A stretch of DNA of 43,879 bases from assembly GCF_004010195.1 (NCBI RefSeq), contig NC_057749.1:11655496-11699374 (forward strand), in the 5' to 3' direction. The stretch comes from Chiloscyllium plagiosum (taxonomy: Eukaryota). Shown here in pieces: positions 1-31,364 of this stretch; the first letter of the stretch is position 1, and every line of letters starts with the position of its first letter. The translations under genes were made by a program, and so were the position numbers. The notes beneath the pieces were generated by a model. The model did no database searches. It was not told the origin of the DNA and was given only the letters and a program-made list of their open reading frames with translations.

Positions 1-500
1 TTCTTCAGGTCCTTTCTGGCTATCCTGTATCCCTCCACTGCTCTGTCTGAATCCTGTTTCCTCAACCTTATGTATGCCTCCTTCTTCCTCTTTACCAGAC
101 CTTCAACCTCTCTCGTCAACCAAGGCTCCTTCACACGACCATTTCTTTCCTGCCTGACAGGTACATACATATCAAGGACACGTTGTATCTGTTCCTCGAA
201 AAAGTTCCACATTTCAATGACATCCTTCCCTGACAGCCTATGCTCCCAACGTATGCTCCTCAAATCCTGCCTTACAGCATCGTAATTTCCCTTCCCCCAA
301 TTATAAAATCTACCTTGTTGTGCGCACCTATCTCTCTCCATAACCAAGGTGAAAGTCACAGAATTGTGGTCACCATCACCAAAATGTTCACCCACTAACA
401 AGCCCACCACTTGTCCCGGTTCATTACCGAGTACCAAATCCAATATGGCCTCCCCTCTGGTTGGACAATCTACATACTGCGTTAGAAAAGCTTCCTGGAC
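1..500 (-). mobile_element. CR1-clade LINE fragment (ORF2, end of the APE endonuclease region), 5'-truncated, runs off the window start
   Basis: Minus strand reads LDLVLGNEPGQVVGLLVGEHFGDGDHNSVTF (APE DH motif) and is homologous to the CR1 at ~40850-41260. Abrupt junction to the GC-rich element near 500. Confidence 0.85.
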
Positions 501-1985
501 TCCTCTGGCAACCCAGCAAACCACCCATCCCTCCCACCTTCCGGCCACTCAAAGGCAGCCCACCCCATGCCCCTTCTGGCTCTCAGTTCACCACATGCCC
601 ACCTCTAGGACAGCCTGTCTGGTTTCCCCATACCCCCCCGCCCCTCAGAACCATAGCAATCAGGACGGCCTACTCACCTCGCACCTCCGGCTACCTCTAG
701 GACAACCCGCCCTAGTACCTTCCCAGGCTGACAGGGCTGAGGACAGCCTACCAGCCTCTCGGTCCACCCCTACATACATCTGACTCTCAGCCAGTCTGGT
801 GGACTGCCCTGACACCTTCTGGCCACTTCTAGGATAGTCCGTTCCCCCTCCATGGGGCAGTGGTGCACAGGGAAGCCCATAAGCCTTCTGGATCTTGGCC
901 AGCCCCTACGCACCTTCTGGCTCTCAGCCACTGACACACCTTCCAACTACCTCGAGAACAGCCTGCCTCGATTACCCCTTCTAGGAGCAACAGTGCTCAG
1001 AATGGCCTACCCACCTTCCGGCTCTCGGGGTGACCAGCATCAGGGTGGCCTACCTACCTTCAGGCTCTTGGGACAGCCTACCCACCTTCCAGTTCTCAGA
1101 ATGGCCTACTCACCCTCCAGCTTGCAGGGTGAAAGCTTCTGGGACAACCTTTGAGCCTCTCAGCTCATAGTGAGGCCTGGCAGACCCAGAGACATACAAG
1201 ACAGAGTAAACCCAACAAGCAACAAGACAGAGTCAATTACCAACAGTTCTCTCCAGAATGCAGAGTCCATTGCCAGGAATAGAGACCATTGCCAGAAACA
1301 GAGCACACACCTGAAGACAGAGTCCACTTCTGAAGGCAGCAAATACACACCCCACAGCGCGCGCGCGCACACACACACACGAGTTCAATCATCCATTGAA
1401 GCCTGGTCTATCCCCAGAGAACCAGGTCCATTCATAGGAATACAGTTCATTGTAAAAGGTGCAGTTAACTCACAGAGGATGGTCCACTCCAACAGGTAGC
1501 AAATGCTCACCTCCCAGCACACACAGAGACCTGGTCTACCCACAGAGGCCAGGCCTACTCACATGGGAACAGTTCATTTAGAAAGGTGCAGTATCTCACA
1601 GGGGCTCAGCCCAAACACCAAAAAGTGAAGGCACATGCAAACAAGAAAGAAAACCAGAGTGCATGGGCTAAATCTCCGCCACTTAAATCAGTATGGTCCT
1701 TTTCTCGAATCAAAAATAAAAGAATAACACAGGCTGTAACCAGCCTGTGAAACAACAGTCCCCTAATGAGAACTGAAATACACCTGTAACACATTGGCTG
1801 TGTAGATCAGCCAGTTTAGAAATCAGTCCTCAATTAAAAAAAGAATACCAGTTATCAAACTGGCTGTGTAAAAATCATCAAGTTCAGGAATCAGGTCCCC
1901 AAAAACAGAAACGAACAACAGTACTGACTGTGGCCAGTTTGCACAGTCAGTCCCCTAAACTAAGGAGATTATAATTCTCCTTGTT
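500..1985 (-). repeat. Unclassified non-coding element X, copy 1 (left end cut by CR1)
   Basis: Collinear with 3174-4595 and 14500-16100: degenerate ~28-bp GGACAGCCTACCCACCTTCCGGC repeats, then ~20-bp CAGAGTCCA(C/T)T repeats, ending in CAGTCCCCTAAACTAAGGAGATT..TCTCC. Strand inferred from the TATA-like and poly(A)-like signals. Confidence 0.75.
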
Positions 1986-2052
1986 TCATTATATTAAACA
2001 GTTTAAGTTAAAAAACAACAGTTAAAATGAAGAACAGTTTACAAAAACAGCA

Positions 2053-3173
2053 ATGGGAGACTGGTGAGCAAGATTAGGTCTCATGGAATACAGGGAGAAC
2101 TAGCCATTTGAAGTGGCTCAAAGATAGAAGACAGAGGGTGGTGGTAGAGGGTTGTTTTTCAGACTGAAGGCCTGTGACCAGTGGAGTGCCACAAGGATCG
2201 GTGCTGGGTCCACTACTTTTTATCATTTACATAACTGATTTGGATGTGAGCATAAGAGGGATAGTTAGTATGACTGGATGACACCAAAATTGGAGGTGTA
2301 GTGGACAGTGAAGAAGGTTACCTCAGGATCTTGCTCAGATGGGCCAATGGGCTAAGAAGTGGCAGATGGAGTTTAATTTAGATAAATGTGAGGTGCTGTA
2401 TTTTGGGAAAGCAAGTCTTAGCAGGACTTATACACTTAATGGTAAGATCCTAAGGAGTGTTGCTGAACAAAGAGACCTTGGAGTGCAGGTTCATAATTCC
2501 TTGAAAATGGAGTTGCAGGTAGATAGGATAGTGAAGGCGGAGTTTGGTATGCTTTCCTTTATTGGTCAAGGTATTGAATACAGGAGTTGGGAGGTCATAT
2601 TGCGGCTGTACAGGACATTGGTTAGGCCACTGCTGGAATATTGTGTGCAAATCTGGTCTCCTTCCTATCGGAAAGATATTGTGAAACTTGAAAGTGTTCA
2701 GAAAAGATGTATAAGGATGCCAGGGTTGGAGGATTTGAGCTATAGGGAGAGGTTGAATAGACTAGGGCTGTTTTCCCTGGAGCATCGGAGGCTGAGGGAT
2801 GACCTTACATAGGTTTATAAAATCATGAGGGGCATGGATAGGATAAATAGACAAGGTCTTTTCCCTAGAGCGTGGGAGTCCAGAACTAGTGGGCACAGAT
2901 TTAGGGTGAGAGGGGAAAGATAAGAGACCTAAGGGGCAATTTTTTCGTGCAGAGGGTGGTACATGTATAGAATGGGATTTCAGCGGATGTAGTGGAGGCT
3001 GGTACAATTACAACATTTAGAAAGCATCTGGATGGGTATATGAATAGGAAGGGTTTGGATGGATATGGGCCGGGTGCTGGCAGGTGGAACTAGATTGGGT
3101 TGGGATATCTGGTCAACATGGACGAGTTGGACCGAAGGGTCGGTTTCCGTGCTGTACATCTATGACTCCATGA
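2053..3173 (+). mobile_element. CR1/HER1-type LINE, 5'-truncated (RT C-terminus and 3' UTR)
   Basis: ORF 2339-2812 WQMEFNLDKCEV...LVRPLLEYCVQIWSP; upstream [10 protein letters not shown] motif; 3' tail CTGTACATCTATGACTCCATGA. Frameshifted. Confidence 0.95.
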
Positions 3174-4670
3174 ATATTTGCGGAGGGCGGGGGGCTGACC
3201 CCAAACTTCACCATACAGAAGAAAACAAAGGGGGAGAACGAACCTCAAATCCCACCTTAATATTATCAAGAATGAAACAAATCACAAACAGATAGTCCAA
3301 TAAAACAGTGCATATAACACAGACACCCCCAGCAACCTAGCAAACTACCCAGCCCTCCCACCTTCCGGCGACACAAAGGCAGCTCACTCTATGTGCCTCA
3401 TGTCCCTCCTGGCGACCTCTCAGACAGCCTGTCCTGTCTCCACACACACACCCTGCCCCAAGTACGACAGCGATCAGGATGGCCTACCCACCTTCCGACT
3501 TCTCTAACCGCCCTATCGCACCTTCCGGCCATTCAAGGATGGCTCGCCCCGGTACCTGACCAGGGTGACAGATCTCGGTCTGCTCCTATGTACTACCTGG
3601 CTCTCTCCCACCCTGATGCGCCATCCGGCCTGTTGACTGCCCTGACACACCTTCCGATCACCTCCAGGACAGCCCATCCCCTTCCTTGGGATGACAGTGC
3701 TCAGAGCAGCGCACAGGCCTTCGAATCTCAGCCTGCCCCTACGCATCTTATGGTGCTCAGCCATTCAGGCACCTTCCGACCACCTCTAGGACAGCCTGTC
3801 CCGATTACTCCTTCTCAGGACAACAGCGCTCAAAACAGCCAACAGCCTCCCAGCTCGCAGGCCTGTCAGACCCATGGACACACAAGGCAGTGCAAGTGAT
3901 AAGCCCAACAAACCAGACAGAGTCAATTAGCAACAAACAGAGTCCCTTACCATAAACAGTTCTCTTCAAAATGTAGAGGCCATTCCCAGGAACAGAGTCT
4001 ACTCCAGTATGCAAAGTGCATTGTCAGAAATAGAGTCCACTGCAATCTGCAGAGTCCATTGCCAAAAACAGAGTCCACTCTGGTATGCGCAGTCTACTCC
4101 TGAAGACAGCAAATACACACCCCACAGTACACACAGGTGTTAAGTCTCCATTAGAGAACCAGGCCCACTCTCAGGAACACAGTACATTGTAAAGGCGCAG
4201 TTAACTCACAGGGGTTTGGTCCACTCCCGAACTCCAGGATGCAGCAAATGCTCAGCTCCCAGCACCCACACACAGGTGTTCAGTCTTTACAGATGCCTAG
4301 TCCACCAACAAAGGGCTAGCGCTATCCACAGTAACAACTCATATGGAAAGGTGCACTCTCACAGGGGCTGAACCAAACACTAAAAAATATATGAAAACAT
4401 ATACAAAAAAAAGAAAATCAGAGTGCAAGGGCTAAGCCCTGCCACAAAATCAACATAGTGCTTTTCTCAAAAGTAAAAAAAGAATAACACCCAGGCTGTA
4501 CCCAGTCAGTGAAACAACCGTTCCCTAATGTGGGATGAATTATGCCTGAAACACATTGATTCTGTAAGAAATCAGTCCTCAAAAAAGGAATACCAAAGAG
4601 CACGCGGTGTCTACCAACACCCTTGAGCTGTTCAGGAAGAGGTGGGCACCACAGGGAGTGGAGTGCTTTC

Positions 4671-5333
4671 TGTGAGAAACGAAGCTCACTCACTTCAATA
4701 ATTTCAGTCTGAGACAAGATCTGAAGCAATCAGTATGTTTATTATATGCTTGCAAGCGTGGTGTCTAAAATAGACACACAGAGTTTAGCAAGTATATATC
4801 TTATATAGGATTCATTACTCCAAACCTGGTGCCCATTACTATTGCTTACCTCCTGCCTTATCCGGCCTTGTGCATAACATAGTACAAGTTTTATTTGGCC
4901 ATTTAACCACATCCTGCTGTGGTCCATTGTTAGGTATATCCTACTTCACTGCCATCTATTTCCCCCACTTGTGACATTTCCTCCCATTCCTCAACCATAT
5001 TGAACCTTATGACCTTTTAATTGGGGTTTGTTTTTTGTTTTTGCAGAAGTGGGAAACAGATGCTTATAACTACTGTTTGTACAAGCATATCTGGCTTAAC
5101 CTACATCCTCACAGCACCTTATCTATTTGTCTGTAACATCTACCATTGTTTGTAGGCACGTTTCATTCTTGTATGCACATTTTAGCTAATACAAAAACAA
5201 TTATATATTTCCTTCACATAGTTTTCATTCTTGTTGACTCAGCTCTTGGTTGAAACAATTATACACTAGTGTGAGTTCATTTACCTTGCATAAGTAATTA
5301 TGATTGCAGAAATAACACTACCTATATCGCACA
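4671..5333 (-). repeat. ERV 3' LTR
   Basis: Direct repeat of 12991-13651. On the minus strand, CCTATATAAG (TATA) near 4800-4809 and AATAAA at 4738-4743. Confidence 0.97.
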
Positions 5334-5351
5334 ATTTCCCCCTTTTTCTTT
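5334..5351 (-). promoter_or_regulatory. ERV polypurine tract
   Basis: Minus strand AAAGAAAAAGGGGGAAAT directly before the 3' LTR. Confidence 0.92.
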
Positions 5352-5383
5352 AATTATAATATGTTATCTTTTGCATTTTTCTT

Positions 5384-7250
5384 TTAAGCATCGCCCCCAA
5401 AATTCACAAGCATCATTCCAGAGATTTCATCCATCTTGGTCTCACTCACCCCCTCATTATTTAATCTATAAAGTTCCTCTGCCTGATTCCCTTTTAGGGG
5501 CATCTGTTTCATCAAGGCTGTCTCAATCAGTCTTTGGGTGAGCCCTTGTATACAGGGTATGATACAACAGTCAATGGCTACCAATACCCCGACTACTACT
5601 ATCAGGGAAGTAAGGATGGAAACCACCACCCCCTTCCATTTTCCAAAACAGGATTCAAGCCATCCCGTGAGAGATGTATCTACTCCTGAATTCTCAGCCA
5701 GTTCCTCTGCTAAGGTAGTCAATCCCCTTAAGGCCCATCAGGCGCAGTGTTATTAGGAATGAAGGTACAACAGCTTCCTCCTAAACATCTCTCTCACTCA
5801 CACACACCCCTTTTTCCATTAAAATCATATCAAGGGCCATTCTGTTTTCCCATGCCATCCTACTTGTGGCATCAAGCTGTTCTGATATTCCTTTAACCGC
5901 ATCTCTTGTATAATTTATAAACCGCTGTTGATTATAGAAAATATAATTTATCCAATCTACATTTTTATTAATTGTTACCCACCAAAAGAGAGCTGATTCA
6001 AAGCCTGCTGCAATCTGATTACGAACCTTGAACTCATCAGGCACTCCCCTAGGGACTCCTACAGAATCGAGATAAATCCTGTCATCGAACAAAGTGTCTA
6101 ACAGTGATCTCTTACTCCTTCTATTTTTCCCTACTATCTTTTCCTTCTCAAATGCCAGGGTAAATGGAATTGCCAATTGTACAATTGGACATACCCCTCT
6201 CCAATCCAGAGGTAGGGTGGGTCTCAATATTTTGCCTCCACAGTACTACCATAGATCCGCTCGGGGAACCTTCAGTGCTGAGTAGTTCCCTCCCTTGTCC
6301 GTTTCGGTGACATTCTTAATCTCTGTACATAATTTCAGCTCCCCCAAATCTCTGGACCGATTTGTACCTCGTTTACGCACACACGACGTGTGATTTCCGA
6401 TTGCGGCTGAAAACGTAGTGGGGGGCATTTGACTCTTTCTTCTCCAAGGGAGGGAACATCAGAGATAGGGAGGTACAGTTCCTATCATTCCATGCAGTCT
6501 TATCCTGATACAGGGCTACCATACATTTCATACCCTTTCTGTCTCGCTTCCACCCGAGCGGAAAGGGAACCACCTGGGCCACTGGCCTACCGGAGGCACA
6601 TGCATAGCAATTGCTTATTCAGACTTTTTACAGTATACTTTACCCATTCAACCCAGACATTTGCAGCCCCGTACCCAGTTTCTATTTCAATGGTCTGTTT
6701 TAAGTCCTTTACATCTATAATTTTTACTATTTTAAGGTCATTGGGAGGGGTGAAAGGTTGTACCTTATTATCCAGTAGTTCTGCCCGTTTTCCCTGTCCT
6801 ACGCTAATTCGAAAACAACAGCCCGACAAATCATTCCTGTTTGTTTTCATTTCTATCCCAAATGTTTCATTTAATTGTACCTGATCGATGCTCCCCAGAA
6901 TTGCTTCGTGCCATGCGGTTTTCTTTATCGCTAGGTATATTGGGTTACACTTTTTAATCGGGACAATCGAGAGCTGGTCGGAAGGGGGCCCGGAGTACTG
7001 TGACGAGACCATTATACCAAGTACCATCCCCGAGGCCATCCCCATAGGACTTAAGATGTATCTCTGAGCTGCGGTACTGTCTCTGATTATCTACATCCCC
7101 ACAGTTGACTAAGCTGCATGCATCAGCGTCTATTACTTGTGGATTATCAGACTCAGGGACCGTTAATAACACATATGAAAATGATATTTGACAAAATCCC
7201 AATACTAAGAGGGCTAGTATCATAACTCTAAGCATCCCCAGCATCCCCAG
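5384..7250 (-). pseudogene. env: Retroviral env (gamma-type SU/TM), frameshifted
   Basis: Signal peptide MLRVMILALLVLGFC; SU CxxC motif NCYACAS (~6595-6615, shifted frame); furin site RRSKR; immunosuppressive-domain-like ENRMALDMIL followed by GVC...GGSCCTFIPNN; transmembrane helix VVVSILTSLIVVVGVLVAI. Confidence 0.93.
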
Positions 7251-7251
7251 T

Positions 7252-7564
7252 GGGCGGCACGGTGGCACAGTGGTTAGCACTGCTGCCTCACAGCGCCTGA
7301 GACCCGGGTTCAATTCCCGCCTCAGGCGACTGACTGTGTGGAGTTTGCACGTTCTCCCCGTGTCTGCGTGGGTTTCCTCCGGGTGCTCCGGTTTCCTCCC
7401 ACAGTCCAAAGATGTGCAGGTCAGGTGAATTGGCCATGCTAAATTGCCTGTAGTGTTAGGTAGGGGGTAAATGTAGGGGGCACGGGTGGGTTGCGCTTCG
7501 GCAGGTCGGTGTGGACTTATTGGGCCGAAGGGCCTGTTTCCACGCTGTAATGTAATCTAATCTA
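7252..7564 (+). mobile_element. HE1-type tRNA-derived SINE, full length, inserted in the ERV
   Basis: GGGCGGCACGGTGGCACAGTGG (A box), GGTTCAATTCCC (B box), CR1-like tail GGGCCGAAGGGCCTGTTTCCAC, TAATC repeats. Near-identical to 37730-38052. Confidence 0.95.
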
Positions 7565-7673
7565 TCCTTGTATTCTAAAAATCGTGAAGTGCAAAAAGAC
7601 TTAATATACAATCCTACAGAAATAATCCCGCGCTCGCGTCGCCACTGTATAATCAGTTACTCAGTCTCTTTAG

Positions 7674-10600
7674 TCAGAGTTTCAGCGGTTCTTGGGTTGA
7701 TTCGACTGTCCAGACTTCTTCCTCAATTGGAGATTCCACTGGCCCTTTTATCTGAGTGTAGTGAGTCCAGCCTTTCTCCACCGTCCTTATTGCCGTTTTG
7801 GTAGTCAAAAGAGCCTGGTACGGCCCTTCCCAGTCCAGTTGTAATTTAGTCTCTGTCCATGATTTTACTAAGACCCAATCTCCCGGCCCGCTGGGATGAA
7901 CGGTGAATTCAAGAGGCGGAGTCTGTGCCAATAAACCCTGTTTCCTGAGGAAAGACAAAGAGGACAACAAGCCCAGTATATAGTTCTTTAAGAACAAGTC
8001 TTTAGTTTTGGGAATTGGCAATTCTCCATTCGTTCCCAGATAAGGTAATCCAAATAAGATTTCGTAGGGGGATAGTCCCAAGTCTTTCCTTGGGGCTGTT
8101 CGTACAAGAGAGCTATAGGTAAACATTTGGTCCAAGGGAGTCTGGTTTCTATTATCAATTTAGAAAGCTGTCGTTTGAGTGTTTGGTTCATTCTCTCAAC
8201 CCTTCCTGATGATTGCGGGTGCCATGGAGTATGGAAGTCCTAGGAAATTCCCAACCCTTTCATTACCCCCATAACACTTTAGAGGTAAAAGGAGTTCCTT
8301 GGTCGGAATCTATGTGGTTCACTAGCCCATAATCGGGGAATTATGTGCTCTAATATTGTTTTAGACACCCCTCTCGCAGTGGCAGTAGCTAGGGGGTATG
8401 CCTCAACCCAACCAGATAAGTGATCTACTATGACCAGCATATATTTCAGTCTTCCTATCTGGGTAGTTGAGTATAATCTACTTGTATACTCTGGAAGGGT
8501 CTCAATCCCGGGTCTCTTCCTCCCAGGGTATGTTTTCTCAAGGCTTTCTTATTTACCTTCCTGCATATTACACATCCCTCACATATTTGTTTAGCAATTG
8601 TATATATTCCTTTACATCCATATTCCCTAAGAACTAAATCACACATTGCTTGTACCCCCCAATTGCTGCCTTGATGTAAGACAGCCATAATTTCCTCGCA
8701 TCATCATTTTGTTTAACATTTCCCTTCCATCAGGTAACATCCAATGCCCGTTTGCTGTTTTTGCAGCCCCTAAATTTTTCAAATTCTTTTTCCTCTCTTT
8801 CAGTAAATATAGGAGCTTCCCGAGGACCTGGGACAGTAGGTATTAGGGAATGAATCTCCATTTCTTGTGGGTTCAGGGCTGCTTCCTTTAGCCGATGAAG
8901 TGGCTAATCTATTCCCCCTAGTTTCTGGTTCATTTCCTTTCTGATGACCATTTACATGTACTACTGTTATTTCTTGGGGGAGTAATAGGGACTCCAAGAC
9001 CCGTTTAATTAACTCCTCATGCTAATTCCTTCCCCCGGCCATTGATCAGTCCTCTTTCCTGCCATATCTTACCGAAAGTGTGCAAAATACCAAATGCATA
9101 TTTAGAGTCAGTGTATACTGTTCCCTCTTTATTTTCTAACGCCCTAAGGGCTCTTTCCAATACATAGAGTTCACAGGTCTGAGCTGACCACCCATTTGGC
9201 AACCTTCCTGCCTCTACCACACTACCTTTCATCCAGTCTACGACTGCATACCCATTATGTCTTTTCCCTTCAGGCACCCGGGATCATCCGTCTATAAAAA
9301 GTCGAGCTCCTGCATGAAGCGGAACATCTCTTAGGCCCATGCGGACCTTAGTTTGGTATTCTATAATGTCCAGGCAGTCATGCTCTGGATTCTGAGGAGA
9401 TTCTACTTCCCCTTTCCAAAGAAAGGCAGCTGGATTTAAACAGTTGTCCGTGACCAACACTAGATCATCCTTTTCTGTTAATATTGCCTCATTTCAGAAT
9501 CCGCGAGTCTGTCAACCATCGCTGAGCTTTTTGGTTTAGGATCACTCTCACTTGGTGTGGGGTGTTTATTATTAGGGCTTTCCCAAATGTAAGCTTTCTG
9601 CTTTTCTCCACCAACAGTGCAGTGGCAGCCACGGCCTGCACACACTCAGGCCAGCCCCGGGATACTGGATCCAATATCTTAGAAAGATATGCTACTGGCT
9701 GTTTCATTCCTCCCCACCTCTGGGTTAATACTCCCAAAGCCGCTCCCTTATTTACAGTAGCAAAGAGGTGGAAAGGTTTATCTAGAGAAGGTAAGGCGAA
9801 CACGGGGGCATGGATCAGATCTCTTTTGAGTTCCTCAACTAGTTCTTTTTCCTCATCATCCCAACTTAGACACTTTGGTTCCTCCTCTAATAGTTTGAGA
9901 TATAATTTCTTAGTCTTTTGAGTATAAGAATCAATCCACAATCTGCAATATCCCATTAGACCCAAAAATTTACGTAACTCCCGTTTAGTCCTGGGCAGCG
10001 GCATCCCCACTATTCCCTCTCTGCGTTCCGGGCTTAATTTTTCACTTTCCCTCACTAACTAAATGTCCTAAGTATTTCACTTCTCGCTTCACATATTATA
10101 TAGTTTGTTTTTAGATACTTGCAGTCCCTGCTGACCCAGGAAATTCAATAATTTGTTAGTGGCTTCTACTACTCTTTCTCTTCTTTTTCCTGTTACTAAG
10201 AGGTCGTCTACATACTGCAACAGGGTAGTTTCCTTGGGGCTGCTAAATTTCTCCAATATTTGTTCTAGCATCTGTCCAAATAAATTCAGGGATTCCATAA
10301 GCCCATTTGGGGGGGGGGGGTACGGTCCACCGTATTGCGGTTTCCATCCGGTCTTGGGATCTTCCCATTCAAAGGCAAACAAACTCCTACTTTCCTCCGC
10401 CAAGGGACAAGCCCAAAAGGCATCCTTTAAATCTATCACACTAAACCATTTGTGGTTATGAGGGTTCTTACTTAATAACGTGTAGGGGTTTGGCACCACT
10501 GGGTGCCTGATCTGTACTATTCGATTCAATGTTCTCAAATCCTGCACCAATCGATACGTTCCATCGGATTTCCGCACTGGTACAATTGGGGTATTATAAG

Positions 10601-11175
10601 GAGACATACATGGCTCCAACAGTCCATCTCTAATCAGTCCCTCAATTACTAGCTGCAGTCCTCGTTTACCTTCTATGGAAGTGGGATATTGTCGCTCACA
10701 GACAACATCCCCTTTCCTTTTTAAACTTATTTCTAAGGGAGGGTAGTTTTCCACGATTCCCTTCTCTAGCCCATACAATAGAGTCTCTCTCTGTCTCCAC
10801 ATCCTCTGTCAACATTACCATTTGTACAACTAATTCTTTTTCCTGAATTCCAATTTCCAGTCCTAAGAGGATAATTAAATCTCTCCCTAATTAGTTACTT
10901 TCTATATCAGGGATATAGAACAGTTCCCCTGTGACTCCATCCTTAGGACCTTCTATCATCATAGGTTCAAATACTGGAACAGTAAATCCTTCCCCTTTTA
11001 CCCCCAAAACAGTAATTGACCGTGTTGACATTCCTATTTTCTTTGGTTTAAAAAACAGCGATGACCGTGCTGCCCCCGTATCTACTAGGAAGACTACCTC
11101 TTCCCTACAGGGTCCCACCTTCAGGTTTATCAAGGGTTCCTGGTGGATCCCCGGGGGCAGGAACCCCTGACACCC
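7674..11175 (-). pseudogene. pol: Retroviral pro-pol (protease, RT, RNase H, integrase), disrupted
   Basis: Protease FLVDTGA; RT YRLVQDLR, IDLKDAF, LLQYVDDLL; RNase H SAQTCEL, YTDSKYAF, HVNGHQ; integrase H..WG..CEGCVIC, IDSDQG, WEGPYQ. Confidence 0.97.
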
Positions 11176-12676
11176 CTATTCTTCTTCAGAATTCATACCT
11201 GGAATTGCCCTTTCTTCCCTTTGTAGATCAGGATACTCCCGCTTAAAATGCCCTACCTTTCTGCAATAATAGCATCCTGCCTGTGGAGACATCCATCTCT
11301 GCCCCTGTCGCCTGAACCCTCTGTCAAATGCTCCCCCTTGTCCTCTCTCTCCCCGTCCTACATGCTGCCACCCGCCGCTCCATTTGCTCACTATTGGTTC
11401 CATTCTTTTCTTAACTACCTCATCAACCATAGCTACCAACATTTTTGCCTTCTGTTTTTGTCTCTCTTTACAAACACTTTGTGCCTCTTAACAATTCATC
11501 TAATAGTTTTTCACTTCACCCTTCTATAAATTTTCTCTATGTCTGGCCATGCCTTTGTCACAAAATGTACTTTCAAAAGGCTCTGTGCCACTGGGTCCTC
11601 AGAGCCAGAGTCAAATTCTGCGACTTTGGAACTGCCTCTCATTCCTTTTAGAATCAGGTCTTTCAATTCCTCATTTCTTCTCTATGCTCCAGGTTTTGAT
11701 TTTCCCACTGCAGGTCTCTGAGGGGAAACTTAGTCTCTCCCTGTCCAGCATCCCCAATCGGGCTGTTCCCTGTCCCATATTTTAAATGGCTGCTCCTCGT
11801 ATATGTCCCCTTTCTTCCCCAGTAAATAGTATATTCAAAATAGACATTAACATAGTCCATATATACAGACTGGGCCCCCAAAATTGATCAATTTGTTCAG
11901 ACAACCCTACTGGATCCTCAACCAGGACCTTCATCTCTTTAAATGTTCTGACCTCCCCACTGGTAAGGGGGGCACTTACAAATCAAATCTCTTTGTCCCC
12001 TAGCGGTGTCTCCTGAAGGGGATAAGTCTTTACGTTCTTCCTTTTTTTGTTTTTGTTTTTCCCCCTTAGGCTTTGGTTTAGATACTCCGGAGGCCTCCTC
12101 TACGTCTACTTTATCTTCCCTTTCTTTTGTTGAGGATTAAGGGTCAGGAACAAACAACATCCCCGTCCACCGCCCCTTCGTCGTCCTCTTGTGGGTCATC
12201 CGTTCCCTGTCCGTCTGTCTCTCAGTCTCTCCTCCTCCCCCATTTTCACCTAATCTGATTTTATGGTACGAGGGGGGCAAGCAGCCAAGAGGATCCCAGA
12301 GACTGGGTGGGGCAGAGGGGGAATCCCTTGTCTTTACTACCATCATTCCCAAACTGCCCTTCCAACAGGACACATAGTCCGCCTCCTCTTGACTAAAAGG
12401 TTGTTTTTCATTCACATACAAATCTAAATACTGACATACCCAATCCCCGAACCATACTTTGGCCAGAAGACAGCTGGACGAAGGATTGGTTCTTTGGTCC
12501 ATACGAAAGTAACAATATTTAATCACTTTCTTTTTATCTTTTTCCCCTTGTACAAGGGTTACTTGTCCATTCCCACAACATCCTCCCCAAAGGACTTTCA
12601 GGAGGAATATTACCAGGGACTTTTTCTTCCTTTACTTTGTCGCAGTTCGACTTACTTTGCCTCCCCTCCCCCCCAT
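11176..12676 (-). pseudogene. gag: Retroviral gag, disrupted
   Basis: Likely start MGGGEAK at 12676; matrix-like QYLDLYVNEKQPFSQEEADYVSCW; capsid-like PLTSGEVRTFK..EDPVGL; degenerate zinc knuckle CYYCRKVGHFKREY; TAG at 11176-11178. Confidence 0.9.
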
Positions 12677-12754
12677 TTCTCGGGGCCCTTGCCAGTCCCT
12701 CAGCGATTAAATACCCCTTTTCCCAGCCACCAAGGCAATACTTAAAAGTCAGTT

Positions 12755-12764
12755 TTCTTACCTT
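12755..12764 (-). promoter_or_regulatory. Putative ERV major splice donor
   Basis: Minus strand AAG|GTAAGAA in the leader between PBS and gag. Confidence 0.55.
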
Positions 12765-12970
12765 GGTCTGTGCACAGAGTTGCCTGGCCCCTTTTTGCCA
12801 TACTTTCTATCGACCTCCTTTCACTGCCTGATTCAGATGTCTCTCTTGTGGGATTCGTACCAGTTGCCTAAGGGAGCAGACCAAACCAGGACACAAGACC
12901 GCTCCTCAATTGGGAACGGGATGCATTTCCCAGTGTCCAGGGCAGCCACTCCCCCCAGGGATGGAAGAAT

Positions 12971-12988
12971 ATCCCGGACGAGCCCCCA
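12971..12988 (-). promoter_or_regulatory. Primer-binding site, tRNA-Pro
   Basis: Minus strand TGGGGGCTCGTCCGGGAT, the canonical 18-nt Pro PBS as in MLV, 2 nt after the 5' LTR. Confidence 0.97.
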
Positions 12989-12990
12989 GT

Positions 12991-13651
12991 TGTGAGAAAC
13001 TGAGCTCACTCACTTCAATAATTTCAGTCCGAGACAAGATCTGAAGCAATCAGTATGTTTATTATATGCTTGCAAGTGTGGTGTCTAAAATAGACACACA
13101 GTTTAGCAAGTACACATCTTATATAGGATTCACTACGCCAAACCCGGTGCCCATTACTATTGTTTACCTCCTGCCTTATCCAGCCGCGTGCATAACAAAG
13201 TACAAGTTTTATTTGGCCATTTAACCACATCCTGCTGTGGTCCATTGTTAGGTATATCTTCCTTCACTGCCATCTATTTCCCCCACTTATGACATTTCCT
13301 CCCATTCCTCAAACATATTGAACCTTATGACCTTTTAATTGGGATTTGTTTTTTGTTTTTGCAGAAGTGGGAAACAGATGCTTATAACTACTGTTTGTAC
13401 AAGCATATCTGGCTTAACCTACATCCTCACAGCACCTTATCTATTTGTCTGTAACATCTACCATTGTTTGTAGGCACATTTCATTCTTGTATGCACATTT
13501 TAACTAATACAAAAACAATTATATATTTCCTTCACAGTTTTAATTCTCGTTGACTCAGCTCTTGGTTGAAACAATTATACACTGGTGTGAGTTCATTTAC
13601 CTTGCATAAGTAATTATGATTGCAGAAATAACACTTTACCTATATCCCACA
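12991..13651 (-). repeat. ERV 5' LTR
   Basis: Direct repeat of 4671-5333, adjacent to the PBS. Confidence 0.97.
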
Positions 13652-14278
13652 TTTCTTACCCCCCCAACTCTTGATTTAATCCCTGCCCTCCCCTTCACTT
13701 TTAAAAAACAAAATCACACAGCATTGCCCTTTGATGAGAAGGGCACTGATTGTCACTGGTCATCCTAGTATTTCCTGTCTTCCTGGTGGTGGAAATTGAA
13801 TAAAGATTTGTACAGTTGTCGTCTTTCACTGTCTCATACCTGCATGCGCACAACATGGGTGCTGGGGAAAATATAAGCATGACCGCAGTTAGGCGGTAGT
13901 GTGGGAATAAAGGGGGGAGTGGGGGGAAGAAAAGAACATAACCAGGAGAGAGATTTAGACTCTCCTCAGTTTAGGGGACGGACTCTAAAAAATAAAAAAA
14001 AAATTTGTATATCTATTGTCTTTGACTGTCTCACCTGCACACACACACACGTGTGTTGGGGAAAATATAAGCACTACCACTGTTAGGTAGGTGTGGTGGG
14101 GGGGAAAAAAGAAAAAGAAATACCAGTTAATGAATCTGGCTTTGTAAACCAGCCATTTTTAAAATCAGGTTCTACAAAAGAAAAAGCAGAAACCAACAGC
14201 AGCAGTGACACACTGACTACGGCCCAGCCAGTACAGAGTCAGTTCCCTAAACTGAGGAGATTCTAAATCTCCTGGTTT

Positions 14279-16105
14279 TTTTTTTTATTTTAATAAACAA
14301 TAGACAGTTTACAAAACAGTGAACATTAACAGCTGTATACAGAGAAACAGCAATTTTCCAAGGAAGAAGGAGTGCCAAAGCCAGGCCTCAAACCCTACCG
14401 TCCAACTAGTTTTCAGGAAACGAGGACAAACCTCAAATCCCACTTTCCATCATCACAAAACAGTAACAAGTACATGTAACAGTCCAATTACATAAAAAAG
14501 TGCATAAAATACAGACCCCCCCAGCAAGCCACTCGTCCCTCCCAACTTCCGGCCACTCTAAGGCAGTCTGCCACTTCTGGCTCTCGGTCCACCCCATGTC
14601 ATGTCCAGTTCTCAGTCCACCCAGAGACCTTCCAACCATCTCTAGGACAGCCCATCCTACTTTCCCAACCCACCGCCAGGATGACAGCAGTCAGGACAGC
14701 CTACCCATCTTCTGGCTTCCCTAGCCACCCTTCACACTTTCCAGCCACCTCTAGGACAGCCCACACCAGTACCTGCCTGGGGTGACAGCGTTGAGGATGG
14801 CCTACCTGCCGTCTGGCTTTCTGTCTGCCCCTACATACCATTGAGCTCTCGCCCACTCCAATGCGCCATCCGGCCGGTGAACTGCCCTGACACTTTCTGG
14901 CCACCTCTAAGACAGCCCATCCCCTTCCCTGGGATGATAGCACACAGGGTAGCCCACAAGCCTTCTGGATCTTGGTCAACCCCAATGCACCTTCTAGTGT
15001 TTGGCTACCCTGACACCTTCCGACCACCACTAGGACAGCTCGTACCAATTACCCCTTTTTGGGGCAACACCGCTCAGAACAGCCTACCCACCTTCTGGCT
15101 CTCTAGGTGACTGGCATCAGGGTGGCCTCCCCACCCACTAGCTTTCAGGGTAGCCTACCCACTGTCAGGTTCACAGGACAGTCTATCCACCCTCTGGCTC
15201 TCAGGGTGACAGCTTTCAGGATGACCTGAGCTCCCAGTTCACAGAGCCTACTAGACCCAGGGACATAAGACAGTGCAGGTGATAACCCCAACAAGCAACA
15301 CGACAGTCAATTACCAACAAACAGTCCTTTCTGGTGCACCGTGTTTATTACCATAAGCAGTTCTCTTCAAAATGTAGAGTCCATTCCAGTATACAAAGTG
15401 CCTTGTCAGAAATGGAGTTCACTCCAAACTGCAGAGTCCATTGCTAAAAACAGAGTCCACTCCTGAAGGCAGCAAATGCACATCACACGTATTCAGTCTC
15501 CATAGAGTCCTGGCCTACTCACAGGAACACAGTACATTGTAAAAGCAGTTAACTAACAGGGGACTGAGGCAGAGTCCATTCCCAAACTACAGGATGCAGC
15601 AAATGCTCACCTCCCAGCACACACATAGGTGTTGAGTTTTTACAGAGGCCTAGTTACCCACAAAAGGGCCAGGCCTACCATACAGGACCAACTCATCCAG
15701 AAAGATGTATTTTCTCACAAGGCTCAGTCCAAACACCAAACAAGTGAAAATACATTCAAAAGAAAGAAAACCAGAGTGCAAGGGCTGAGCCCTGTCTCTA
15801 AATCAGCATAGTCCTCTTCTCAAAGAGTATCACACATACTGTAACTAGCCAGTGAAACAACAGTTCCCTAATGAGAACTGAGTTACACTTGAAAAACTGA
15901 CTGTGTAAATCAGGCAGTTTAGAAATCAGTCATCAATAAAAAAAGGAATACTAGTTAACAAACTAGCTAAATAATTCAGCCAGTTCAGGAATCACCCCAC
16001 CAAAAAAACAGAAACCAATAACAGCAGTAACACACTGACTGTAGTCCAGCCAGCATCAAGTCAGTTCCCTAAACTGAGGAGATTCTGAATCTCCTGGCCA
16101 TATTG
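14279..16105 (-). repeat. Element X copy 3 (uninterrupted, ~1.8 kb)
   Basis: Same blocks as copies 1 and 2. The left end reads ATTAAAATAAAAAAAAAAA on the minus strand (poly(A)-like); the right end has the dyad AGGAGATTCTGAATCTCCT. Confidence 0.75.
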
Positions 16106-16205
16106 GTCAGCCAGGCTTACCTGACTCTCCCAGTTTAGCAGAATATACTGACCATGGCCCACTTAGTCAGTCCCCTAAACTAAGGGGATTCCAAATCTCC
16201 TGGTT

Positions 16206-16327
16206 ATACATTTTTTTTCATACTTTACTTCCCATACTAATACCTAACTACAATAGTGCTTACATTTCCCCAGCACCCATGATAGGGGTGCAGATGTGAA
16301 ATACAACAGGTGTGCAAATCTTTATTC
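16206..16327 (-). mobile_element. Tx1-type 3' UTR stub with poly(A)
   Basis: Reverse strand GAATAAAGATTTG...CATGGGTGCTGGGGAAATGTAAGCACTA...AAAAAAAA matches 13798-13900. Flanked by ATCTCCTGGTT at 16195-16205 and 16328-16338. Confidence 0.8.
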
Positions 16328-16454
16328 ATCTCCTGGTTTATATTAGTCAGCCAGGGCTTTCCTGATTGGGGTTGTTAACCTGAGCTAATGACTTCAGAGT
16401 CAGAGTCAACAAGGTCAACCTGCAGCGACTAGTGTACTAGGACACATTCCTCTC

Positions 16455-16635
16455 TTTCATTTTATAGCCATTTAGATAATGATCTGCCCTCCTGTTTTTG
16501 CTACCAAAGTGAATAGCCTCAAATTTATCTACATTACACCTACCATTCATTTGGCCTCTCGGTCAGTTTGTCCAAATCATACTGAAGCATCTCTGAATCC
16601 ACCTCACAACACACACTCCCACCCAGCTCTGCATA
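16455..16635 (-). mobile_element. Old CR1 RT fragment
   Basis: ATCTGCCCTCCTGTTTTTGCTACCAAAGTGAATA resembles 33105-33140 (HFGSKN region). Confidence 0.6.
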
Positions 16636-17562
16636 GATTGTGATTGGACTTTCATTTGCTCAAATAGAAATGTGTCTCCAACCATTTTCCTCAATATTTC
16701 TCCGATTCTCTGGCTGTCACAGGGTCATGGGATTCTGCTCCAAAGACGGCAGCTTTTCCTTATCTTGTCCAAGTGATTGTTCATCATATGTGAGACATGG
16801 TACTGAGTGGTGGTCAGTTGTTTGACTGTGGGGGAATCCCAGGAATGAAATCAGCTGAAAATAGAAACCTGTTTGATCCTCTAGCTGAACCACTGAGGGT
16901 GATTGTAGTACTGGATAAGATCAGTTAACCAACCAACCAACCAATCAACTAGCTAGTTTGTCATGGAATCAAACTTTAGCACCTTCTAGAAAGAAGGAAA
17001 ATGAGTGGGAAAGCTCAACTGAAAATCAGAACTTCAAAGAAAGCTGGTCCTTCGATCAACATTGAGCTTGTGACAGATTCCAGAGCAAATATGGAGAGAG
17101 ACGGTCTCCCGTTATGAAGATTGGTCATTGTATGTCTTTTCAAGCCTTTACACTGTTCTCTGCAATTTGCTGCTTGAGGCATTGATCTCACGGCCGATAC
17201 TGTTTGAAATTTGAAATGAAACTGAAATTTGTGTTTTTATTTGAATCTTTCCTCCTCATCTCAAGTTTTTTTTAAGAAGAAACAAAGTAATTTCCCTTTG
17301 TGAGTTTTTGTTTAATTTTGCTGCATTGCTTTCATAATCTCCTCTACGTGCTATTCCCTGTCTGAGACACTAACCACAGCAGTAGGTCTCTGAAAGCTAC
17401 TGTCTGGAATCATTTGCTGTTCCAGCCTCAGCCAGTCAGAGCAAGCTGTTGCAATTCCTAATTCTGCATGCAACGTGAGTAAGATAGACAGTCAGCAGGA
17501 AATCACAATCAGACATTTCACTAACACACCCAGAAAAGGCTTTTGCTGAAAATGTGTTTTGT

Positions 17563-19453
17563 TTTTTTTAAAAATATATATTTTTTTCTTTATTTTTAAA
17601 TTTAACCCCCACACTACCGCCCAACTGCAGTAGTACGTATTTTTTCCCAGCAGCCATGGTGTGTGTGTACAGGTGTGAGACACAAGGTGCACGAATCTTT
17701 ATTCAATTTCCACCACCAGGAAGATAGGAAAAACATCCGAGTGGCCAGTGACAAGCAGTGCCCTTCACATCAAAGGGTAATGATGTGTGAAGGGGAGGGC
17801 AGGGATTAAATCAAAATAGAATTAGAGGGGGAAATAATGCACTCCACTCCCTGCGGTGCCCACCTCTCCCTGAACAACTCCAGGGTGTTGGTGGACACCG
17901 CGTGCTCCTTCTCCAAGGACACCCGGGCTCTAACGTAACCGCGGAAGAGGGGCAGGCAGTCGGCCCTAACGACCCCCTCCACGGCCCGCTGCCTGGACCT
18001 GTTTATGGCCAGTTTGGCCAGGCCCAGGAGCAGACCCACGAGGAGGTCTTCAGACCTGCCCTCCTTCCTCCGTACCGGGTGCCCAAAGATCAGGAGCGTG
18101 GGACTGAAGTGCAGCCAAAAACAGAGGAGAAAGTTTTTAAGAAAATCAAAAAGGGAGTGCAAACGCCCACACCCAATATACACGTGGTCCACGGACACCA
18201 CAGCGCCACAGAANNNNNNNNNNNNNNNNNNNNNNNNNNNNNNNNNNNNNNNNNNNNNNNNNNNNNNNNNNNNNNNNNNNNNNNNNNNNNNNNNNNNNNN
18301 NNNNNNNNNNNNNNNNNNNNNNNNNNNNNNNNNNNNNNNNNNNNNNNNNNNNNNNNNNNNNNNNNNNNNNNNNNNNNNNNNNNNNNNNNNNNNNNNNNNN
18401 NNNNNNNNNNNNNNNNNNNNNNNNNNNNNNNNNNNNNNNNNNNNNNNNNNNNNNNNNNNNNNNNNNNNNNNNNNNNNNNNNNNNNNNNNNNNNNNNNNNN
18501 NNNNNNNNNNNNNNNNNNNNNNNNNNNNNNNNNNNNNNNNNNNNNNNNNNNNNNNNNNNNNNNNNNNNNNNNNNNNNNNNNNNNNNNNNNNNNNNNNNNN
18601 NNNNNNNNNNNNNNNNNNNNNNNNNNNNNNNNNNNNNNNNNNNNNNNNNNNNNNNNNNNNNNNNNNNNNNNNNNNNNNNNNNNNNNNNNNNNNNNNNNNN
18701 NNNNNNNNNNNNNNNNNNNNNNNNNNNNNNNNNNNNNNNNNNNNNNNNNNNNNNNNNNNNNNNNNNNNNNNNAAATCAAAGAGGGAGTGCAAACGCCCAC
18801 ACCCAATATACAGGTGGTCCACAGATTCCACAGCGCCACAGAACAAGCAGTTGGGCTGGGAGTCCGTGAACCACCGCAATCTGCGGTTGCAGGGGACTGC
18901 TGCGTGCAGCATCCTCCACCCCAGATCCCCGAGAGAAAGGGGGAGGACTCCCGCGTAGAGGGCCCTCCACTGGGGATCCCCACCGCCCGGTGGCAAATGG
19001 GCACGCCAAGGTGTGTCCGGACGGTGGATGAGGGAGAAGAGGTGGATGGTGTGCAGCAGCAGTCTATACAGGACCAGCATTGTTACGTCCTTAAAAGGGA
19101 TGAAATTAAAATTCCGGAGGCGGCTCAGGTTGTGGGGCACAGGCTCCCGCGGGAAGTACGGGACCTTGGGGCCAATGTGAAATTCCATCCGGGCTGGGGT
19201 GAGCGCGGACGGGATCCCACCGCACACCTGAGCGTCCTCCAACTGGTGCACTACGTCGGGTCCGAGCACCGCCGTTTTAAGGCGTCAAATGGCGGTGGCC
19301 ACGTACCGGACATCTACCACTGCCCTGCTCGCTATGTCCTGCAGCAGCATCCAGCCCAGGCCCCCAGCACTCAGCACGTCCCCAACCCTGGTCACCCTCG
19401 CCGCCACGGCCCTCCCCTCTGACAGCCACTCGAACCCGCGAGTACGGAGGTGC
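17563..19453 (-). mobile_element. Tx1-clade LINE, 5'-truncated (ORF2 C-terminal zinc-finger region and 3' UTR)
   Basis: WRALY...GWRMLH...CLFCGAVESVDHLYIGC (RT-associated CCHC finger); stop at 17806; A-rich tail; CpG-rich. TSD AAAATGTGTTTTGT (17549-17562) / AAAATGTCTTTTGT (19454-19467). Confidence 0.9.
18214..18772. other. Assembly gap (559 N)
   Basis: Run of N. Confidence 1.
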
Positions 19454-19709
19454 AAAATGTCTTTTGTATGTGCATGGGCAGCTCACCACATTGCTTGCTG
19501 CCAATATTCTCTAATTACTCAGTCCATTGTGGGAGAGGAAAACCACTGCCTAGTATAAGTATAAGAGCCTCTTAGTTAACAAGATGTAGTTTATTGCATG
19601 TCAGCAACTAGCTGTAAGTTACAGAAACGTTGAGGAGGACTAGATATTGGGTTTCAACAATACTCTACCCAAGCTTTTCTGATTACCATTATTCATTTGT
19701 GTGAAAATG

Positions 19710-20886: not shown

Positions 20887-21764
20887 TGTGACGATGCTGC
20901 TCCTTTAACAAGGTTATGTTGTCCTTGGTTTTTTGAAAAGGGTGTGTAAAGGCAGAGGTGCCGGCCTGGCTACCAGAGATTGCCTGAGTCAACAATCAGG
21001 GGAGGCCTTTAGGTTTTTTTTTCAAAAACAGTTGTACAATGAAAGAGGAGTGGCCAATTCTCCCAGTTCAGGGACTTTTCTAATTTGGTTTAGTTTTAGC
21101 AGTTAGAAACAGCTGGGGACAGAGAAGCCGCTACAGTGAAAAGAGGTTCAGGCGACTGACTGTGTGGAGTTTGCACGTTCTCCCTGTGTCTGCGTGGGTT
21201 TCCTCCGGGTGCTCCGGTTTCCTCCCACAGTCACAAAAGATGTGCAGGTCAGGTGAATTGGCCATGCTAAATTGCCTGTAGTGTTAGGTAAGGGGTAAAT
21301 GTAGGGGTATGGGTGGGTTGCGCTTCGGCGGGTCGGTGTGGACTTGTTGGGCCGAAGGGCCTGTTTCCACACTGTAAGTAATCTAAAAAGGTTCCTTGCT
21401 TCAGCAAATGACCCCTGGCTGATCCTCTCTCTCTAATATCTCTCCTTTAAGAACCTGGGTTAAATTTACCTTTTTGCCAAAGGGTATGTTTATGGGGATG
21501 TTGCAGGAATTTGGAACTGGATCATTAAGTTGCAATAGAGTTAGTTGCATTTTCAGATAGGTTATGTTATTCTAAACTCTGTTTCCTTTTGCTTGTGTTT
21601 CATTCAGTGGTGTGTAAATAAATTGTTTTACTTGAAGCCAAGTAGTTTGACCAGCTCATCACTCCTGGAATATCCACCTTACATCTGCCTAAATCAACTA
21701 GCAAAGTTAGGGTCTGGGCTACTTTCTTGAAATGTTTTGAGGGGGTCTGGCCTGGTCCATAACA
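20887..21764 (+). mobile_element. Solo LTR related to the Gmr1-like element's LTRs
   Basis: TGTGACGATG...GGTCCATAACA termini match the reverse complements of the LTR ends at 23323 and 27292; internal AATAAA near 21618. Confidence 0.85.
21148..21385 (+). mobile_element. HE1-type SINE, 5'-truncated, inside the solo LTR
   Basis: Near-identical to 7322-7560; flanked by AAAAGAGGTTC / AAAAAGGTTC. Confidence 0.92.
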
Positions 21765-22854: not shown

Positions 22855-23323
22855 TAACTATATTGTAAAACTTAACCAAATAATAGATACAGTAACTTTC
22901 ACTACTTAACTGTTTCAATATAGTAACATCCCATAAACACACCCCTTAGCAAAAAGGTGAATTCAGAAGAATAGATTTCTCACAGGTAACCGAGCAGCAG
23001 AGGGAAACCCAGCTTCTAGCTGTAACCGAGAGAGGGAAAAGAAAGCTTCTACTTCTTCAAAACTCCAGCAGTTTCTGCCCTGTTGTGACTCCACAGCAAC
23101 AGCGTAATGCTAAACCCAATGACCTGAAAAAAAACTCCAAAGACCTGGCCTGTGAGAGCTGGCCACGCCTATCCAGGCTGCTTCTATTGTTTCAACTTTT
23201 AAATATGCCAAAGCCTCACAAGTTGTTTATCTTCTCATAGACTGCTCAATACCTGTCCTCCCCAGTCTCTCTCTCCAAGAAACCAGGACAAAACAAATCC
23301 CTTAAAGCCACAGCATCATCACA
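22855..23323 (-). repeat. Gypsy 3' LTR (partial)
   Basis: Homologous to ~27830-28275; ends CATCATCACA next to the PPT. Confidence 0.8.
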
Positions 23324-27291: not shown

Positions 27292-28275
27292 TGTTATGGA
27301 TCAGACAAGATTCCCTCAAAATAATTTAAGACAATAGCCTAGATCCTAACTTTTTCTTATGTTAAAGACAAATGTGATGTGCTGTGTTCCAGATGCAATT
27401 CGATTGGTCAAACTATTCTGCGTTAACCAAAACAGTTTATTTAAACGCCATAGTTAAAATACAACAAAATAACGTTAGGTGAATTGGCCATGCTAAATTG
27501 CCCCTAGTGTTCAGGGATGTGTGTGTTAGGTGCATTAGTCATGGGAAATGTAGAGCCTGTGTGGAGTTTGTACATTCTGTCAGTGTGGGTTTCCTCCGGG
27601 TGCTCCGGTTTCCTCCCACAGTGCGAAGCTGTGCAGATTAGGTGAATTGGCCATGCTAAATTGCTCATAGTATTCAGGGATGTCTAGGTGCATTAGTTAG
27701 GGGAAATGTAGAGTAATAGAGTAGGGGAATAGATCTGGGTGGAATAACTTCAGAGGGTCAGTGTGGACTTATTGGATCAAATGATCTGTTTCTACCTATA
27801 GGGATTCTGTGATGAACTCAGATTAATCTAACTCTTTTGGAAAACATAACTGAATAATAGATACACTAATTAACTGTTCCAATATCGTGACATCCTATAA
27901 ATACACCCCTTGGCAAAAAGGCAAATTCAGAAAAGTAGATTTGTCTTACAAGTTACCCAGTAGCAGAGACAAACCCAAGCATCTAACTGTAACCAACAGA
28001 GGGAAAAGAAAGTTTCTACTTCTTCAAAGTTCCAGCAGTTTCTGCCCTGCTGAGACTCCAACAGCAACTGCTTAATGCTAAACCCCAAAAAATTAGAAAT
28101 TCTCGTCTATGAGACCTGGCCACACCTATCCAGGCTGCTTCTATTGTTCCAACTTTAAAAGTAGCCCGAGACCTCACAAGTTGTTTATCTTCTCATAGAC
28201 CGCTTGACACCTGTCGCCCAATCTCTCTCTTAAAAAAAGGATAAAACACACCTCTTGAAGCCACAGCAATTTGAC
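27292..28275 (-). repeat. Gypsy 5' LTR (contains SINE pieces)
   Basis: TGTTATGGA...TGACA termini; degenerate Pro-like PBS next to it (minus TCGAGGGCTCTTGTTGGGAT). Confidence 0.8.
27474..27812 (+). mobile_element. Older HE1-type SINE fragments (two, partly duplicated)
   Basis: TTAGGTGAATTGGCCATGCTAAATTGC occurs twice; GGTTTCCTCCGGGTGCTCCGGTTTCCTCCCACAG core. Confidence 0.85.
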
Positions 28276-31155: not shown

Positions 31156-31364
31156 AGTTGATAGTGTATAAGACATTCATCAGAATTAATCCTTTCAGAA
31201 TCATGCAACAACACAATTAAAATTAGTCACATAGTGGACTGAACATAATCCAGAACCAGCTCCTCAGTTTTCTGGCAATCGTCTTTTAAAAGTACACACA
31301 CCACAGAAAGCTGCAAATTCACAAGGAATTTGTGATGATAGTTTTTAGAATTTCACATTCCATT

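Follow-up and report, generated by a model that had tools for sequence, protein, structure and literature searches.

Organization of the locus

The window, by which is meant the whole 43,879-nt stretch of DNA analysed here, is vertebrate DNA rich in repeats, for which the one named close protein match suggests a cartilaginous fish. It carries a repeat named X in three minus-strand copies that lie head to tail (Xc > Xb > Xa), as seen by self-comparison and alignment. X is a non-coding element of about 1.8 kb with internal sub-repeats, and the head of each copy opens with the motif AACCAGGAGA and a dyad. The parts of the array are:

508..1985, minus strand: Xa, with its head (motif and dyad) at 1941-1987 and its 3' end lost under a LINE fragment at 1-500
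1985..2052, minus strand: 3' end of Xb joined to the head of Xa; AT-rich, without poly(A) (no A run above 3), and homologous to the Xc tail
3172..4595, minus strand: body of Xb, interrupted at 2053-3171 by a LINE fragment
14112..14277, minus strand: head of Xb, with the right TSD of an insertion at 14112-14125, a unit at 14224-14277, an initiator-like word at 14249-14255, the dyad at 14255-14273 and the motif at 14268-14277
14278..16110, minus strand: Xc, about 1.8 kb; its A-rich tail (11 A) abuts the motif of Xb, and its head dyad is at 16077-16095
16161..16205, minus strand: a second, upstream head monomer, with an imperfect dyad at 16183-16201, an initiator-like word at 16177-16183 and a 3' TSD copy at 16195-16205

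Pairwise, Xa, Xb and Xc are 73-75% alike, and no pair is closer than the others. Their alignment contains no conserved open frame, the six frames of Xc gave no Pfam match, and X has the lack of coding capacity of a non-autonomous LINE passenger. The LINE fragment within Xb (2053-3171) is CR1-like by eye and without a Pfam match. Of the two junctions between X copies, that at 14277 has a real A run and that at 1985 has no poly(A); the tails at the two points align with each other and may go back to a single inherited junction. A TSD cannot be delimited for Xc because X itself begins with the target monomer. Three other identities considered for parts of X (a Helitron hairpin, a ribozyme head and an ORF1 remnant) were dropped after Rfam, alignment and six-frame Pfam scans. 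RNA depth at the 3' end of X favours the sense strand (20.6 vs 3.7), a pattern that internal priming on A tracts gives as well.

The motif and the repeat head

Exact copies of AACCAGGAGA are found at 13940-13949 (plus strand), 14268-14277, 16196-16205 and 16329-16338 (all minus strand), and a fifth site with one mismatch is at 1976-1985 (minus strand); these sites, like the five dyads, had been described in an earlier, sequence-only reading of this DNA and are all where it placed them. Four exact copies compare with a first-order Markov expectation of 0.17 for the window, and nine copies with one mismatch with an expectation of 4.33 +/- 2.08 (nine or more in 3 of 100 shuffles). Neither count represents independent hits, because the exact copies at 16196-16205 and 16329-16338 are the two halves of one TSD and because all five sites are homologous, being copies of the approximately 45-nt 5' head of one repeat (33-38 of 41 positions identical). 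A profile built from the five heads found no sixth full copy in the window. Within the head, 32 of 38 columns are invariant, compared with a mean of 24.1 in the X body, where only 17 of 1062 windows reach 32, which suggests that the better-kept part is the whole head rather than the palindrome.

It had been proposed that several A-rich tails end independently against this motif. Over the 22 nt before the motif, the longest A run is 9 at 14277 and 8 at 16205, as the proposal implies, but only 4 at 13939 and 3 at 1985, and the four supposedly independent tails reduce to two independent events, or at most three. The observation is in part borne out: it is real, yet was over-counted. An L1-like tail at about 35590 does not adjoin the motif. 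Rfam returned three matches over window positions 1-25000, all far under their gathering scores, and therefore no known RNA gene as the target. Pattern scans for the repeat head in metagenome and viral contigs gave no match.

Tx1 insertions at and near the repeat heads

Four Tx1 copies (A to D) occur in the window, and the features that concern them are:

4582..4595, plus strand: left TSD of a composite Tx1 insertion, 14 bp with one mismatch to 14112-14125; an A-rich tract of Xb, not the motif
4596..4670, plus strand: 5'-truncated start of Tx1 copy A (end of ORF2), 90.7% to 17836-17910
4671..13654, minus strand: LTR element (LTRs 4671-5336 and 12991-13654, 95.2% alike), a later insertion into Tx1 copy A and outside the hot spot
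13655..13938, plus strand: 3' UTR and decayed tail of Tx1 copy A, from self-comparison
13939..13990, plus strand: repeat-head piece of about 50 nt with motif and dyad, a 4-nt GAGA duplication, then an A run
13990..14111, plus strand: Tx1 3' stub B with its tail, starting at the A-rich tract of the Tx1 3' UTR
16206..16327, minus strand: Tx1 3' stub C, about 122 nt with an 8-A tail; the only insertion at the motif that a TSD proves
16328..16450, minus strand: 5' TSD copy (16328-16338) and upstream region U, with TATAAA at 16337-16342 and CCAAT at 16365-16369
17549..19467, minus strand: Tx1 copy D, 5'-truncated, with a 14-bp TSD (17549-17562 / 19454-19467, one mismatch) in single-copy DNA; a control off the motif

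The first six of these make up the composite insertion in Xb, in which a single 14-bp TSD frames, in order, the start of copy A, the LTR element, the rest of A, the 50-nt head piece, the A run and stub B. In the sequence-only reading the pieces at 4596 and 17563 were two Tx1 copies inserted away from the motif. This holds for copy D (17563), but the piece at 4596 belongs, as its 5' end, to the very copy that tails at 13939: the LTR element splits copy A and one TSD frames the composite, so both belong to one Tx1 element. The composite landed in an A-rich tract, not at the motif, and the head piece at 13939-13990 is best read as 3' flank carried along with copy A. On this reading the junction at 13939 would have been made at another locus and brought here by read-through and template switching, the cDNA of stub B having switched to the poly(A) of a second RNA, a read-through transcript of A with 50 nt of flank; the parent of A would therefore have lain at the same base of another head. 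The head piece is also 38/41 identical to the Xb head only 250 nt away, and it is possible that it is a local templated copy of that head. The idea that 13939-14111 is a monomer-headed short element was set aside as less likely, no separate TSD longer than 4-7 nt having been found for copy A.

The insertion of stub C is the clearest case. Its 11-bp TSD is exact (16195-16205 = 16328-16338), as had been noted before, and extends to 14/15 nt, including the TATA tract, if one indel is allowed, which is the length of the two other Tx1 TSDs (14 bp). Stubs B and C share their start point, the A-rich tract of the Tx1 3' UTR, in agreement with the prediction of microhomology (at the 5' joint of C) and template switching. 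Stub C, copy A and Xc share the orientation of the motif, and copy A and stub C join it at the same base, each with AT before AACC. Across the window, the motif is found at one of the three TSD-marked Tx1 sites and at two of the four tails, the two other TSD-marked sites being ordinary T/A-rich DNA. Against a null of four heads among 467-3785 AT-rich sites of the window, which is post hoc and treats the two events as independent, the rough chance is 0.003-0.025 for one of three TSD sites and 7e-6 to 4e-4 for two of four tails.

All Tx1 copies in the window are 5'-truncated, and only the C-terminus of ORF2 is present. It contains a zf-RVT domain (E=1.4e-5; 26.1 bits, below the 27.5 cut-off) and shows 32-34% likeness to fish proteins (P0086 and P0159) of a cluster that includes a protein named 'transposon TX1 uncharacterized 149 kDa protein'; its C-terminal 270 aa are 27-29% alike to a full-length relative of 1291 aa (P0148) with the domains Exo_endo_phos, RVT_1 and zf-RVT. 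The zf-RVT domain and the Tx1-named relatives support the assignment of copies A-D as Tx1-like, and the copies bear the marks of TPRT, namely a poly(A) 3' end, 5' truncation, and TSDs of 11, 14 and 14 bp. They share one 3' UTR family while occupying different target sites. In 238 reads the Tx1 RNA runs into poly(A) directly behind 13905, and the motif is therefore not a normal part of the transcript. A protein search for longer forms gave none among 401 candidates, and in the protein atlas the zf-RVT clusters are weak, with a recognition of 1926, below the 2300 mark. The Tx1 3' UTR pattern had no match in viral contigs, and protein-seeded scans of viral and prokaryote contigs found no relative. 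One metagenome contig (L001) that matched the 3' UTR pattern reads as bacterial DNA and was rejected as a chance match.

Abundance and nature of the target

Contigs from four runs, among them contigs of two related organisms (A and B), were compared with window positions 13660-18200 at 80% likeness, leaving out 17553-17607. The resulting depths are sums over contigs and not copy numbers. Single-copy DNA reaches 7-14 and the X body about 1,000-9,500; the head bin (14116-14267) stands at 48,033 and 180,704, and the Tx1 3' UTR at 414,000-682,000. Past 14277, the contigs enter not a T run but an AT tract, with a consensus that starts ATATATATTT (65 contigs at an agreement of 0.53 in run X1, and 150 at 0.67 in run X12). 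Most heads are thus empty, and are preceded by an AT tract that can be read, on the motif strand, as a TATA box. The un-inserted form of the stub C site, in which the head lies directly on region U (joint 14275->16338), was present in three of the four runs (3, 3 and 2 contigs). A contig from organism B spans stub C, so its insertion would predate the split of the two organisms. No joint between a Tx1 tail and the motif is among the 15 contig joints listed, beyond which there are 1337 further joints.

These data identify the target as a TATA-like tract at the head of an abundant repeat, a point that the sequence-only reading missed. In the un-inserted allele of the window, TATAAA begins at -28 and CCAAT at -55 relative to the A of the initiator-like word, the labels following the usual consensus words of the TATA box and initiator. 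The same spacing of TATA and initiator occurs at 5 of the 62 TATAWA sites of the window, and the promoter look that it gives the head is suggestive only. No pile of RNA starts is seen at the initiator-like word in a poly(A) single-cell run, where depth is 1-5, and neither LTR ends, a paired LTR, a primer-binding site nor a PPT was seen around the head (16098-16450) by eye or by self-comparison. Kinship of the head with an LTR-like stretch at 21059-21074 was tested and is not supported, the likeness being not significant (27 of 500 random pieces).

Does a Tx1-like family prefer this site?

The sequence-only reading inferred a possible Tx1 target here, at most a preference. What stands of it is a single hit proven by its TSD, together with a carried-over junction at that very base; what counts against it is that the other two TSD-marked sites are generic. 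Preference of a Tx1-like family for the site is plausible, and the bias would be a preference, not strict specificity. The explanation we hold with moderate confidence is that of a TATA-proximal hot spot in the promoter-like head of the repeat, at which a relaxed Tx1 endonuclease nicks the DNA while X is moved in trans. The TSD-flanked stub C shows a target-primed insertion at the TATA-like tract, with its second cut in the right dyad arm and the target rebuilt in front; the insertions share one orientation, the empty heads are flanked by an AT tract, and ordinary T/A-rich sites are used as well. Counted against this explanation are the lack of a delimitable TSD for Xc and of poly(A) on Xb.

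In this mechanism the motif would be the TATA-proximal part of a head that presumably works as a promoter (CCAAT, then TATA, then AACCAGGAGA with its dyad, then the initiator-like word) and that is carried by an abundant, possibly LTR-derived, repeat family. The relaxed endonuclease of a very abundant Tx1-clade LINE would nick the T-rich strand at or inside the TATA tract, reverse transcription would be primed at that nick, and the other strand would be cut in the right dyad arm, 11-15 nt further on. Passengers would enter in the sense of the promoter, and since the duplicated target would keep TATA and AACCAGGAGAT intact in front of them, the site would stay open to further hits. X could then be a non-autonomous poly(A) passenger of the Tx1 machinery, its copies stacking head to tail.

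The strongest competitor, which we consider possible but rather unlikely, is that there is no real preference, and that an ordinary Tx1 hit in an AT-rich tract is accompanied by inherited or copied junctions. The X array would then have grown by tandem duplication of one old tail-head junction, with slippage accounting for the T run at 14277, and 13939-13990 would be an inverted copy, made locally from the Xb head when the composite inserted. The alignable tails at 14277 and 1985 and the likeness of the 13939 piece to the nearby Xb head fit this account, as do the generic DNA at two of three Tx1 TSD sites and the great depth of the Tx1 3' UTR relative to single-copy DNA, given which hits in any abundant AT tract are expected. 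It is less easily reconciled with copy A and stub C joining the motif at an identical base and in a common orientation, for which the rough chance under simple AT-rich-site nulls is 2e-5 to 4e-4. Moreover, the Xb head is near the commonest form in the reads, so that likeness to it is no proof of a local source, and the X copies are too diverged, with no closer pair, to sit well with tandem duplication.

It is improbable, in our view, that the target is instead the monomer of a 60-70-bp tandem repeat (a mini- or satellite), with the promoter look due to chance and the X heads being stray monomers. Tandem copies of the 14224-14277 unit do occur, chiefly in organism B: contig joints return by 43-54 nt, 12-28 AT-rich letters lying in between, and the loose ends that flank the unit on either side run into a further unit. 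The excess depth of the head bin over the X body would also suit a satellite, and 'Sat, satellites' are named among Tx1 targets in the fig. 3 legend of PMC4494074. In organism A, however, contigs that pass 14224 most often go on into a different, non-tandem sequence (117 contigs, agreement 0.47), which was not found in the window, and the 54-nt return is seen in one contig only. The contigs prove two units, not arrays, and in the window itself the two adjacent monomers are 106 nt apart and the TRF list contains no such array.

Much the same low probability attaches to a dedicated Tx1 subfamily that recognises AACCAGGAGA together with the dyad, either as sequence or as an extruded hairpin. Such recognition has a precedent in the Tx1L endonuclease, whose nicking in vitro is described as almost confined to its own site (PMC1950540). 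At stub C, the TSD places the second-strand cut in the right arm of the dyad, and three of the five head copies fold better as DNA than 199 of 200 shuffles. But the copy with the proven insertion folds worst (z -1.14, with 28 of 200 shuffles as good), perhaps through later decay, and contigs of organism B carry other inner-arm letters (GGGT, GTGT and TGGG). The dyad had been held to keep its symmetry despite divergence, a claim that found no support in a covariation check: 37 of 40 cells pair and three are broken, with no compensatory and no one-sided standard changes, in five related sequences that give low power, and the arms, which differ at 3 of 80 positions, show no better conservation than the 18 non-palindromic nt beside them (5 of 90; Fisher p=0.72). 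A dedicated subfamily would also sit badly with copies A to D, whose one 3' UTR family is spread over different sites. The palindrome is probably incidental to the insertion preference, and the comparison of heads leaves the dyad unsupported as a conserved determinant of the target.

Relation to known Tx1 targets

According to Kojima 2015 (PMC4494074), Tx1 families prefer sites in DNA transposons (Mariner, Harbinger), LTR elements and satellites; site preference ranges from 13% to 90% of copies, and a family is called target-specific if one sequence type makes up more than 20% of flanks. The same paper describes how Tx1 families trans-mobilise SINEU to the same sites, often in tandem, and proposes transcription of SINEU from the flanking target, there without data on starts. 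The present locus would resemble the crocodilian Tx1-Mar with SINEU, Tx1-8_Crp and Tx1-4_AMi described in that paper, in that a Tx1 family prefers a position inside another repeat and passengers share the site; the repeats so used there are Mariner-N4, LTR retrotransposons and Harbinger. The putative passenger X differs from SINEU in being about 1.8 kb long and in lacking an snRNA head (no credible Rfam match), and the site here is a TATA-like tract. Tx1L of Xenopus laevis, which inserts at one site of the host repeat Tx1D, is likewise an APE-type LINE of the same clade (PMC1950540, PMC4494074), but it is stringent, whereas the family here lies at other sites in two of the three TSD-marked cases. 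PMC1950540 contrasts the stringent Tx1L with the promiscuous L1 and its consensus of 5'-TTTT/AA-3'.

A search of literature that extends to few subscription papers and not to Repbase reports found no account of the motif or of a shark Tx1 target, and the single match for the 11-mer is in a paper on microRNA loci (PMC6827902). By analogy, the locus would be a new example of the described Tx1 habit, working like Tx1-Mar and SINEU. For now it amounts to a modest, local case of behaviour already described. If the preference is confirmed, it would add one more target to the Tx1 list, and the locus would help to test directly whether a LINE endonuclease can read TATA boxes or open promoters in general and whether targeted elements borrow the promoter of their target.

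Human L1 is known for 3' transduction. The composite insertion recalls human L1 and SVA in its T-rich nick sites, TSDs of about 14 bp, carried 3' flank and chimeric structure, but human L1 is not known to have a repeat-specific hot spot of this kind. X, whose mobility is putative, also resembles SVA as described in PMC4494074 in being a non-coding passenger of about 2 kb with internal repeats. A bolder version of the favoured mechanism, which we regard as doubtful, is that a cartilaginous-fish Tx1 lineage homes on the TATA boxes of LTR-type Pol II promoters, through TATA shape or tethering to TBP/TFIID, always in the sense direction, so that each insertion would capture a promoter. X would then be an SVA-like 1.8-kb passenger that begins with the downstream half of the promoter and rebuilds promoter and target with each hop, giving self-extending arrays.

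Tandem repetition and folding of the X head

The head unit (14224–14277), which carries the motif and dyad at the 5' end of the non-coding repeat X, was also present in the contigs from the public sequencing runs X1 and X12, where it forms a 60–70-nt tandem repeat with varied AT-rich spacers. This tandem form is far commoner in the contigs of organism B than in those of organism A, and may represent a lineage-specific satellite derived from the promoter region of a repeat. In the window itself, the double-monomer head (16000–16206, minus strand) gave a good RNA fold (z −3.84; 0 of 200 shuffles), in part because of the inverted repeats it contains, and had no match in Rfam.

Tx1 copies and other repeats

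The window holds several other repeats:

4671–13654, minus strand, LTR element, LTRs 95.2% alike
20920–21760, LTR-like stretch, interrupted by a SINE-like repeat (21148–21386)
22855–23242 and 27829–28200, direct-repeat pair, 80% alike, enclosing degenerate coding-like DNA (old LTR element)
28230–31200, 43-bp minisatellite, about 60+ copies
35590–36350, minus strand, 3' part of a further LINE that by eye resembles L1
39587–39741, inverted repeat, MITE-like, 65-nt arms 98% complementary, 25-nt spacer

The LTR-like stretch and the direct-repeat pair were found by self-comparison. The LTR element at 4671–13654 interrupts Tx1 copy A, a 5'-truncated LINE piece, and therefore dates that copy; its reading frames are broken in the window sequence and, by eye, resemble remnants of retroviral pol and env. 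The A tail of the L1-like fragment lies away from the motif, the site in the X head where some Tx1 tails end.

Tx1 copy D, another truncated piece, contains a 559-N gap, and self-comparison revealed 71 nt duplicated on either side of it (18143–18213 and 18773–18843; 93%), which probably reflects either overlapping sequence in the assembly or a tandem pair of copies. The tail of copy D also carries a TATATAT tract flanked by two A runs (17563–17600).
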